Part shown: positions 56,708 through 59,000 of the stretch, in pieces
Layout of the letters: the number at the start of each line of letters is the position of its first letter
Position numbering within the stretch: position 1 is the first letter of the stretch
Origin: Psammoneis japonica
Lineage: Eukaryota
Assembly: GCA_008632985.1 (NCBI GenBank)
Contig: QPGO01000290.1
Location: 1 to 64,000 of the forward strand
Reading direction: 5' to 3'
Length of the DNA: 64,000 nucleotides
Position numbers and translations under genes: made by a program
Notes under the pieces: model-generated
The model's database searches: none
What the model saw: only the letters and a program-made list of their open reading frames with translations
Told to the model about the DNA's origin: nothing

Positions 56708-59000
56708 TTAAAATAGAAGATTAAGGAAGCCTATGTAGAGCGGAAGGTAACAGCAGAGGGAGGCACGGAGGAAGCTGTAGAGACGGTAGAGTAAAAAGGT
56801 CGATGGACGCAAGACGAAGGGCGTTTTGTGGAAGGTATGGGTGAGGAGGGGGCAGGGAGAGAGGAGGTGAATCGGAGGATGTGCGTAGAAAGGTGAAGAA
56901 AACGTTGTAGCCAAGAGTTTGGGTGGCCCACTGGGATGGGGTGGCTGTACGGTAGGTGTTTCCAAAGCGATCGGCGGACAGGCGACGCCATGCGGAGTCA
57001 GCAGAGGGAAGGATTGCAGACGGAGATGACAAAGCGTAGAGGAAGGCGGAGTAGGAGGCATCGGAGTGACGAAGGTCAGAGGAAGAGGACCAGGGTGGCT
57101 TGGGCTGAGAGCAAATAGAGGGGGATGTAGAACCAAAGAGCAAGCGGTGGGCAAAGTAGCCGAGACCACCAAGGTGATCTACAGTGAAGGGGAGCAGAAA
57201 GATGCCATTGTTGTCAAGCGAAGAAACAACAAGGGATCCATCGGCAGAGGAAGTAGAGGGGCCAAGAAACTTCAATCTCGCGCTCGAGTGGTGTGCCTCA
57301 GTTAAGATGGGAGAAGAGGGGGCAGGCAGACCTGGAGGAGGGCGAGAGGAAGCTTGAGGGACGGTGACATCCACTGCAATGCAGTGATGGCGGGAGGGAG
57401 CGGAAAGGGAGGCGGGAGGGGGGATTGAAATGCCGACATCGGTGGGACGGAGAAGCGGGCGGGTGGGGAGTAGGTTGGTGGGTTCAAGATGAACGTTGTT
57501 GGGGGATCGACAGAACTCAGCAAGAGGGCCCAAAGTTTGGGCTGGGATGAAAACAGTGTCACGGAGACCATTGGAAAGCTTGGACTTGTGAGCACGGCGG
57601 CAAGAAAAGGCATGATCACCGCAGGCATCCAGAATGGCATGGCCACAGGGACAGGGAGTGTTGACAAGGGACGGAGGAAGGATGGGGAGACGAAGCTTAC
57701 GAAGGGCGGCAATGGCGCAGGCGTCCGAAGAAAGGCGGGAGCTTGGAAAGCGACGAGAGAAGGAATGAAGAGGGAGGCTTGTGAGCGGAGACAGCAATGA
57801 AGGGAGCGAAGATTGCACGTCGTAAGATGAGTTAGCAAGGATGGAGGTCACTGCTTGTTGCTGATGTTCATGGTAGAGACGACGGGCCAGACCGGGGAGA
57901 GTGGCCGATTTAACCAGGGCAGCCAAGGAAGAAGAGGAAAGGGTGGAGGCGGAAGCCAGAACGGGAGCACAACGGCGGAAGAGCGCACAGAGTCGCAGGG
58001 AAGAGCAAGGGTTGGACCAGGAAGACAGGGAGAGCCGAAAGCAGCGCGGAAGGGAAACAGAAGCGCCAGATGGCAGGCTGACACCGTGCGAAGCAAAGCG
58101 GAACGAGCGGAGAAGCGACACCAAGAAGGAAGGAATGGCGGCAGCTGTTGGGTCCCGGAGACCAAACCCGCCTGAGGAGGCAGGAAGGAAGGCGATGGCA
58201 ATGGAGTGGTCGGGAAAAGGAGCGGCGAAGGAAGTGACGTAGTGTTTTCTTGTCAATTTTGAATTTTGTGAGTGGTGAGGTGGCAGGTGAGGCGAAAAAG
58301 ATCGGTCGGAGGAAGACGAGAACGGACAGACTTGAGCAGAATTCTCCGCACGTGCCGCACTCGTGTCGGAGGGGGGATTTTGGAATTTTCGCCATCTGCG
58401 TTGAAGGTTGAAGGTGCACATGTCGACAATGTTGCCTGCTGCGTTGACAAACTGGACGTCATCCATGGGCAAACGGATGAAGAACATGACAGAGGGGTTG
58501 GTGACAGTGTTGTCCAGCTGATGGAGGTTGATGATGCCTTGCATTTTTGCACACATGACATGATTGGGATGGAGACATGGTCAGCCACCGCACCATCATC
58601 CTGGATTGGTTTGAGGATGCGCCATTGTTGTCAAGGCAGTCTGGGATGATGGCTCCAGTGGCATCATGGTGTGTCATGATGGCAAGATTCACAGGATCCT
58701 TGAGGGACTGGTGACCTGCACTCTTCCATTCAGCAGCAATCTTGACTTCAACAAGGCTGGTTTGACTGGCGAGAGTGCCCACGATGGCAAGGCAGTCCCC
58801 GTGGGGGACAGCCCAGATGTGTTGATGACTGCACTCTTGTTGACATTGAATGCAAGGCAGTGCTTGGCATCAGCCATGTCTGTGGCAATGTGAGGGCAGA
58901 CACTCTCAAGGTGATGCAATTGTGCGCGCAGGTGTGATGCGCTTCTTCGGGATGAAGGTCTTGGACAGAGGGTTGGCCAGATGCTTGTCGGTGGACAATG
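56708..59000 (-). mobile_element. CRE-like non-LTR retrotransposon, 3' part (RT C-terminus, Zn motif, restriction-like endonuclease)
   Basis: LPASSGGFGLRD, CPCG..GDHAFSC, RPTDV..VDVTV and FLLPFTVDHLGGLG. Short A tract at the 3' end near 56704-56709. Upstream boundary uncertain. Confidence 0.78.

Follow-up and report, generated by a model that had tools for sequence, protein, structure and literature searches.

Loss of TpA from mobile DNA in a diatom-like genome is usually excluded from blocks beside genes and at the 5′ end of a LINE

In a genome that we call diatom-like by its gene content, TpA steps are erased from mobile DNA, and the surroundings of a copy, not repeat status alone, decide what is mutated. 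The aligned copies indicate that TpA is changed to TpG or CpA after insertion, on both strands and preferentially where TA is followed by a pyrimidine. As a pattern across copies, the loss is excluded from blocks of ~0.3–0.6 kb beside genes and from ~0.86 kb at the 5′ end of one LINE family. Forty copies of this LINE serve as a natural reporter: the same sequence, with different neighbours. In the cases examined, the mutator targets the repeat and leaves the adjoining unique DNA alone.

The window and its LINE copy

The window, the whole stretch of DNA that was analysed (64,000 nucleotides), comes from a 91-Mb eukaryote assembly, in which it is contig C291. In the window profile, TA-normal gene islands alternate with blocks in which the observed/expected ratio (o/e) of TpA is near 0 and CA plus TG is raised; Pfam-confirmed host genes sit in TA-normal flanks, and TpA loss is restricted to foreign or mobile DNA. 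The genes around the LINE encode a mitochondrial carrier, a TLDc protein, a JmjC/cupin protein (54996–56657, minus strand; Pfam JmjC_2, E = 3e-12), and a WD40 protein (from ~62.95 kb). The TLDc gene is split into two frames, which may be an allele or assembly difference; at 53525–54217, runs X1 and X2 both differ from the window by several small indels and substitutions. Elsewhere, the window contains a TA-poor frame with a weak match to the Crinkler N-terminal domain (12852–13670; E = 3e-5) and a Copia-like element (20786–28057) with 288-bp end repeats that are 97% identical and long Tyr-poor frames.

The LINE copy occupies 56706–58245 on the minus strand. It is a 5′-truncated copy of a two-ORF non-LTR retrotransposon of ~6.23 kb, represented by its last 1.54 kb, with 97%-identical colinear matches at dozens of loci, and the first ATG of the JmjC gene is 48 bp downstream of its 3′ end. 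Full-length copies (~6.23 kb) contain two long frames, and in two of them the ORF2 frame runs uninterrupted for 1253 codons. A genome search with 56700–58600 gives 40 scored matches among 155 candidates, and a search with a degenerate 3′-tip pattern finds 41 places; the 3′ end is present in 40 of 41 stretches (the window and 40 loci). The original prediction extended the LINE to 58600, but family homology ends at 58245, and the part beyond is covered by none of the 40 scored matches except the window itself. The 619-aa frame described earlier is therefore a chimera, as other repeats follow where LINE homology stops. The DNA at 58246–58600 (no strand assigned) has no TA and is the start of an older mixed-repeat block that reaches ~62.75 kb, the repeats of which are 65–85% identical to other loci. 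A direct repeat (58292–58387 and 62771–62870, 77% identical) brackets the TA-free block; the copy adjoining the WD40 gene retains TA steps and the inner copy has none.

The window copy encodes the C-terminal part of ORF2, including a CCHC knuckle and a PD-(D/E)xK-type motif. The reverse transcriptase (RT) lies outside it, as RVT_1 is matched in the full-length ORF2 of L041 (E = 2e-8) and is absent from the truncated window frame. Both motifs are conserved in 10 homologues, and their Cys, Asp, and Lys positions are invariant across 12 sequences; we take them to be a CCHC knuckle and a restriction-like endonuclease (RLE) motif. PDB matches cover the RT part only, and the 14 homologues retrieved are unnamed. 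The earlier description of the LINE as CRE-like agrees with the RLE-type C-terminus. However, CRE1 and SLACS insert into one specific repeated target, which is not seen here, since the LINE flanks are different unique genes. Target-site duplications give no consistent signal in the 40 copies.

The LINE frequently ends within ~160 bp upstream of a same-strand ATG (L033, L035, L037, L038, L044, L045, L050, L063, L068, L070, and the window copy, 56657–56706), and it possibly prefers promoter or 5′-leader regions. A Pfam-confirmed 3′ neighbour is present at 19 loci, on the same strand at 13 of them and convergent at six (p = 0.17). Just upstream of L033 lies another fragment from the 5′ region of the LINE, 284 bp long. 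L036, L040, and L045 have an identical upstream stretch adjoining gaps, possibly an assembly effect.

By comparison with the family alignment, TA survives in the window copy at 18 of 23 ancestral sites over the last 600 bp and at 7 of 32 beyond (Fisher p = 4e-5), and the change-point lies at 596 bp. The copy thus consists of a spared block adjoining the JmjC gene (56706–57305, minus strand) and a mutated part (57306–58245, minus strand), in which the TA-type sites that are not kept read TG or CA. Raw TA counts show the same break, with 21 in 56708–57300 (o/e 0.77) versus 8 in 57301–58245 (o/e 0.25; composition-weighted binomial p = 0.005), a contrast that is partly intrinsic, since the last 600 bp holds 24 TA-type sites and the next 940 bp holds 32. 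The predicted TA-rich 3′ ~600 bp with depletion beyond ~57.3 kb is confirmed, as is the retention of Tyr codons toward the 3′ end (six of the nine in the LINE frame have positions no higher than 57158), but retention falls off at an edge, as in a spared block, with no smooth slope.

Gradients had also been described in two other frames. The 290-codon ORF at 40386–41255 (plus strand) has 5 versus 12 TA in its 5′ and 3′ halves (p = 0.14), and the 321-codon ORF at 50414–51376 (plus strand), which contains a repeated module and matches no Pfam family, has 8 versus 13 (o/e 0.32 vs 0.39; p = 0.38). Both differences run in the direction described, and neither is significant. The 5′ half of the former ORF is unpolarisable because it lacks homology to the other module copies, with which the ORF shares only its 3′ module. 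Relative to its paralogue at 13.2 kb, the 51-kb ORF keeps four of nine sites in its 5′ part, whereas the remainder retains 15 of 21 (p = 0.23). In the main alignment of the 51- and 13-kb copies, just one of the two retains TA at 18 sites, and at 16 of these it is the 51-kb copy (p = 0.001).

Copies of the 213-bp module retain six, seven, and six TA at 34.2 kb (34197–34409, plus strand), 41.0 kb, and 51.2 kb, and one at 14.0 kb (13968–14180, plus strand), where the copy lies in a TA-poor block and serves as an internal control. The sparing that had been noted for the copies at 34, 41, and 51 kb is therefore borne out in direction. The module is a poor test of homology-based targeting, because it is found on this contig only and its copies are 72–82% alike.

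Erasure of TpA in the LINE family

Projected on one reference, the 40 LINE copies give 223 TA-type columns. The letters in these columns are TG (1804), TA (1717), CA (1211), and all others (24); the columns were preselected as TA, CA, or TG, and an unbiased context table gives the same excess. Both CA and TG occur in 183 of the 223 columns, which requires TA as the ancestor. In addition, Tyr columns that are invariant in 10 outside homologues are changed to Cys or His in family copies. The RT motif has Y in 12, C in six, and H in one of the 19 copies read.

The interior TA sites of 16 young copies show 1553 losses out of 2138 (~73%, including some inherited losses), versus 235 of 34062 for other A/T transitions (0.7%); CpG is lost at 284 of 9467 positions (~3%). 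Among 11 young near-full copies, the products differ in 1927 of the 5522 copy pairs that both lack TA at a site (35%), indicating that many hits occurred after insertion. The A of TA is hit at a rate of 0.50–0.54 before C or T and 0.17–0.24 before A or G on both strands. Strand-specific hit rates are alike within one context. A>G at TAY is indistinguishable from T>C at RTA in sequence data. At some interior positions (for example, LINE reference positions -1201, -1954, -1859, -3849, and -4744), TA survives in all scored copies; several of these lie outside the disfavoured context.

Two other sources of such changes were considered and rejected. RNA-level editing of the retrotransposon is out because the antisense product is common. 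Polymerase-eta mutagenesis has a WA-type spectrum, and it is out because AA is not elevated.

One locus is present in two versions, on C174 (L035) and C37 (L066), which are either alleles or duplicates and are 99.5% alike over 6354 bp. The 1.55 kb of LINE contains 22 base differences, of which 12 fall at nine TA-type sites, nine are at CpG, and one is of another kind; three of the nine sites differ as TG versus CA. The 4.8 kb upstream contains eight differences. In the C37 version only, a fresh LTR element sits ~150 bp inside the LINE 3′ end. This 6.6-kb element (C37, ~568.0–574.6 kb; L066 and L086) has identical 348-bp LTRs and normal TA throughout, indicating that new insertions start without TA loss. 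As a test of whether separation from the gene exposes the tip, the pair gives only two extra TA losses within ~600 bp, too few to be informative.

Spared blocks and the surroundings of a copy

Because the copies were collected by their resemblance to the window copy or its 3′ tip, the set is biased toward spared tips; a TA-normal flank is used as a proxy for a gene. Rows dropped from the comparison are L067 (no match to the 3′ query), L052 (a near duplicate of L051), L066 (the other version of the L035 locus), L036 and L040 (both lacking a 3′ flank), and four copies with fewer than 12 sites.

In the last 450 bp, 23 copies with a TA-normal flank keep 360 of 409 sites, versus 64 of 162 in nine copies with a TA-poor flank; such site-by-copy counts are non-independent and include inherited losses, and Fisher values computed from them overstate the difference. 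Taken by copy, the difference is significant (Mann–Whitney p = 8e-5, with a flank cut-off of 0.3 chosen after the profiles were seen), and the interiors are alike (0.27 vs 0.23, p = 0.33). The continuous correlation of sparing with flank TA is not significant at the 3′ end (rho = 0.33, p = 0.066, n = 32) or at the 5′ end (rho = 0.23, p = 0.22, n = 30). Sixteen young gene-side copies (without L046) keep 205 of 207 sites within 300 bp of the 3′ end, 89 of 112 at 300–600 bp, and 21 of 48 at 600–700 bp. Beyond 700 bp, retention is at background, with some sites resistant in all copies. L048 is the reciprocal case, with a spared 5′ block and a mutated 3′ end.

Some copies depart from the flank rule. 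L046 and L051 retain only 7 of 18 sites although their 3′ flanks are TA-normal. Their Pfam-confirmed neighbours are convergent and 670–770 bp away, which may explain, after the fact, why these ends are not spared. Five copies were held out, of which four are scorable; three fit the rule and L088 does not, keeping 3 of 18 sites with a 1-kb flank o/e of 0.38. The first 250 bp of its flank contains no TA.

A second spared block is found at the native 5′ end. Eight of the 13 full or near-full copies keep 198 of 203 sites there, with a common edge ~860 bp in, and the other five, which have a TA-poor 500-bp flank, keep 57 of 145; the two groups are defined by outcome. For three of the spared blocks (L042, L043, and L045), the surrounding DNA turns TA-poor 200–600 bp upstream, indicating that a spared island can exist within the 5′ region of the element itself. 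Beside its 5′ junction, the truncated copy L038 keeps 20 of 22 mid-ORF sites versus 5.3 expected, a retention never reached in 2 million site-matched draws. Across 14 truncated copies, the effect at 5′ junctions is inconsistent (96 of 244 sites kept vs 66 expected). No sparing is seen there in L051, L053, L058, L059, L060, and L061, several of which have a gene start 180–510 bp away.

CpG decay, an indirect proxy for methylation, is reduced in the TA-spared blocks. At the 5′ end, 2 of 256 CpG are lost in spared blocks, versus 34 of 407 just inside them and 21 of 185 in unspared blocks. The corresponding losses are 11 of 482 versus 47 of 749 at spared 3′ ends, and 27 of 164 versus 46 of 293 at unspared ones. 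The claim that the process stops near genes is supported: LINE ends beside TA-normal flanks are mostly spared from TpA loss, and the spared ends lose less CpG.

Contigs from run X2 bear on transcription, although none of the sequencing runs is listed as RNA. One of them skips 78 bases with intron-type ends, which X1 does not, and we infer that X2, recorded as 'DNA?', is RNA-derived. X2 represents one sample, common to X1 and possibly the source, and its contigs show no start sites. The contig at 54775–56733 covers the JmjC gene and overlaps the LINE by 28 bases, fewer than the 31 needed for bridging. Contigs at 50336–51252 cover the 51-kb ORF, and others run from the LINE tip into the flanks of spared copies L047, L050, and L058 (flanks matched by eye). 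X2 gives no cover over 57078–59213 and most of 59.7–62.4 kb, which is not used as evidence. In the repeat block, the checked differences between X1 and the window are not at TpA steps.

Possible mechanism and comparison with known systems

The reading that we favour, with a probability of roughly 0.6, is that silent, CG-methylated chromatin forms on the repeat and is where the mutator acts, and that the chromatin of promoters or transcribed DNA excludes it. A repeat would insert unmutated, and silent chromatin would then nucleate on it. The reduced CpG decay in the same blocks suggests that the mutator acts only within CG-methylated, silenced chromatin. The promoter or transcribed chromatin of a neighbouring gene, or the LINE's own promoter, would exclude it. 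The chemistry is most likely adenine deamination, the simplest option and, by analogy, the one proposed for Bigelowiella natans; a putative enzyme of the TadA/ADAT2 type, recruited to silent chromatin, would convert adenine in DNA to inosine. In the window, the JmjC start 48 bp away may shield the last ~600 bp of the LINE, and the 5′ junction, which abuts TA-free DNA, would be unshielded.

Such promoter-type shielding within a repeat-targeted process fits better than a front spreading from outside, in which mutagenic chromatin from large repeat blocks fades near an expressed gene. A front would account for the ends that abut TA-poor DNA and are mutated to the tip, for the ~300-bp variation of the 3′ edge among copies, for the five copies of at most 224 bp between TA-normal flanks that keep 36 of 36 scored 3′ sites, and for the mutated L088 with its TA-free 250-bp spacer. 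However, copies with TA-normal DNA on both sides (L032, L037, L038, L044, and L047) are still mutated inside. Their interior loss is ordinary (sites kept: 43 of 171 in L044, 41 of 172 in L047, and 23 of 126 in L037), indicating that no outside block is needed. In addition, the unique DNA adjoining the mutated ends of L046 and L051 is TA-normal, and the full-length 5′ ends of L042, L043, and L045 are spared up to a fixed inner edge amid TA-poor surroundings. The spreading domains of the original prediction are therefore not supported, and we regard a front as rather unlikely.

Lesions could instead be broad, with inosine or mismatch repair efficient only in open or transcribed chromatin. Repair of this kind would yield the same map and a parallel sparing of CpG, but it would have to be near-perfect over all unique DNA, whether genic or not, against a ~100-fold excess in repeats. 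Moreover, the fresh LTR element is untouched throughout, for which time is the only account in repair and exclusion models alike. We consider this explanation improbable.

Homology alone is unlikely as the targeting rule. RIP-like recognition that is less efficient near the ends of the paired region would produce sparing at element ends, and the process does stop at the repeat boundary in L046 and L051. However, the 3′ tip is the highest-copy part and the homology end in every copy, and it is spared in 21 of 23 copies and largely lost in nine others. L038 spares sequence common to ~20 copies, and a target in Bigelowiella natans is reported as single-copy in the accessible part of a preprint (10.64898/2026.01.13.699255). 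The same LINE sequence is spared or mutated according to its neighbour, in agreement with the earlier view that sequence homology alone is not the guide, and we give recognition by homology little weight.

Purifying selection, by which the tips would be host promoters or UTRs and copies with mutated tips would be removed, is very improbable. Many tips do lie just upstream of a same-strand start codon, and X2 contigs connect tips to flanking DNA, but selection would be needed on nearly every TA and CpG over 300–860 bp, even in the mid-ORF sequence of L038 and in the convergent cases L047, L062, and L032. Separate insertions, which had been named as what would refute the prediction, or later gene conversion from a fresh copy are scarcely credible: separate insertion is true for 58246–58600 only, and 56706–58245 is colinear in ~30 copies, its spared and mutated parts being equally old as judged from equal neutral divergence (1.62% vs 1.61%; rho = 0.93 for pairwise distances) and the same subfamily.

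Both the element and the process can be set against known systems. According to the available text of PMC5348765, the RLE-bearing 'old' non-LTR clades are CRE, R2, and Utopia. As in these clades, the RT of the LINE is followed by a CCHC knuckle and a restriction-like endonuclease motif (PMC5348765). Unlike them, the LINE has two ORFs, is ~6.2 kb long, and is dispersed beside many different genes instead of occupying one repeated target.

A deaminase profile search gives nine PF00383 and five PF14437 matches, among which no expanded or unusual deaminase family is found. By motif reading, the genes are dCMP-deaminase-, TadA-, ADAT2-, RibD-, and guanine-deaminase-like, together with a deaminase–dioxygenase fusion. 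ADAT2-like genes are expected in any eukaryote, so that finding one is hardly informative. L103 is an ordinary-looking one, with HxE/PCxxC and the Asn noted in the B. natans preprint, spread over two frames. In L108, the catalytic Cys is present. At L102:313–1785, a deaminase domain is fused to a 2OG-Fe(II) dioxygenase, with a putative role, probably, in nucleotide metabolism. C5-methylase matches number 27. Of these, L112, L113, and L114 are C5 DNA methylase frames in TA-erased DNA (o/e 0.07–0.10) with almost no Tyr, which suggests that the process has acted on methylase genes that are mobile or duplicated. L115 is a methylase frame with a weak chromodomain match in the frame upstream, and it resembles the chromodomain-bearing diatom DNMT4 described in the accessible part of PMC9998398.

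RIP changes C to T at CpA and raises TpA, is premeiotic, and requires no more than repeat homology for targeting. The process in this genome resembles RIP of ascomycetes, which depends on RID/DNMT4, in that heavy transitions on both strands disable repeats. It is not RIP: RIP makes TpA, whereas here TpA is erased and Tyr and stops are removed, and one and the same sequence fares differently according to its neighbour, so that homology is insufficient. Diatom DNMT4, some forms of which bear a chromodomain, is described in the available text as possibly RID-related and of unknown function (PMC9998398). The same source gives DNMT5a a role in the silencing of diatom transposons (PMC9998398). As with methyl-CpG decay in DNMT5-silenced diatom transposons, the same spatial blocks are spared here. 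Unlike the TpA loss, that decay is passive C>T, and it affects ~3% of CpG in young copies versus ~73% of interior TA sites.

The closest system is that of B. natans, in which TpA hypermutation of integrated NCLDV and virophage DNA has been reported (Mettrop et al., bioRxiv 10.64898/2026.01.13.699255). It is the one description of TpA hypermutation found in the literature, with none found for diatoms or boundaries, subscription coverage being incomplete. In the accessible part of the preprint, TpA changes to TpG or CpA on both strands in foreign and mobile DNA, and TpA-poor coding sequences are enriched for transposon domains (10.64898/2026.01.13.699255). Mutation-accumulation lines there show a ~1000-fold rate per generation in two large viral blocks, one of them single-copy, with only some lines active; ADAT2 is proposed as the enzyme, and RNA guides or epigenetic marks are suggested (10.64898/2026.01.13.699255). 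Both systems share TpA-confined changes on both strands at the DNA level, with mobile DNA hit and host genes spared. Unlike in B. natans, a rhizarian in which mutation was measured directly, the evidence here is comparative and comes from a multi-copy LINE in another lineage.

It is tempting, if doubtful, to see here a chromatin-guided DNA adenine-editing defence common to stramenopiles and Rhizaria. Such a defence would act only in CG-methylated silent chromatin and be excluded by promoter chromatin. The LINE would land just upstream of host starts, its tip would become promoter or leader, and the tip and the LINE's own promoter would thereby escape.

The process explains the long, Tyr-poor, stop-free frames in this genome, which can mislead annotation. 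As far as the accessible part of the B. natans account goes, it contains no boundary rule, gene or promoter sparing, 3′-pyrimidine preference, or link to CpG decay, and its supplements may bear on context and boundaries. Relative to that part, what is new here is the context-dependent targeting, the protected zone of 0.3–0.9 kb, the sequence preference, and the spatial tie to CpG decay. The preprint, in the same part, leaves targeting open, and the LINE copies make the guidance of the mutator directly testable.
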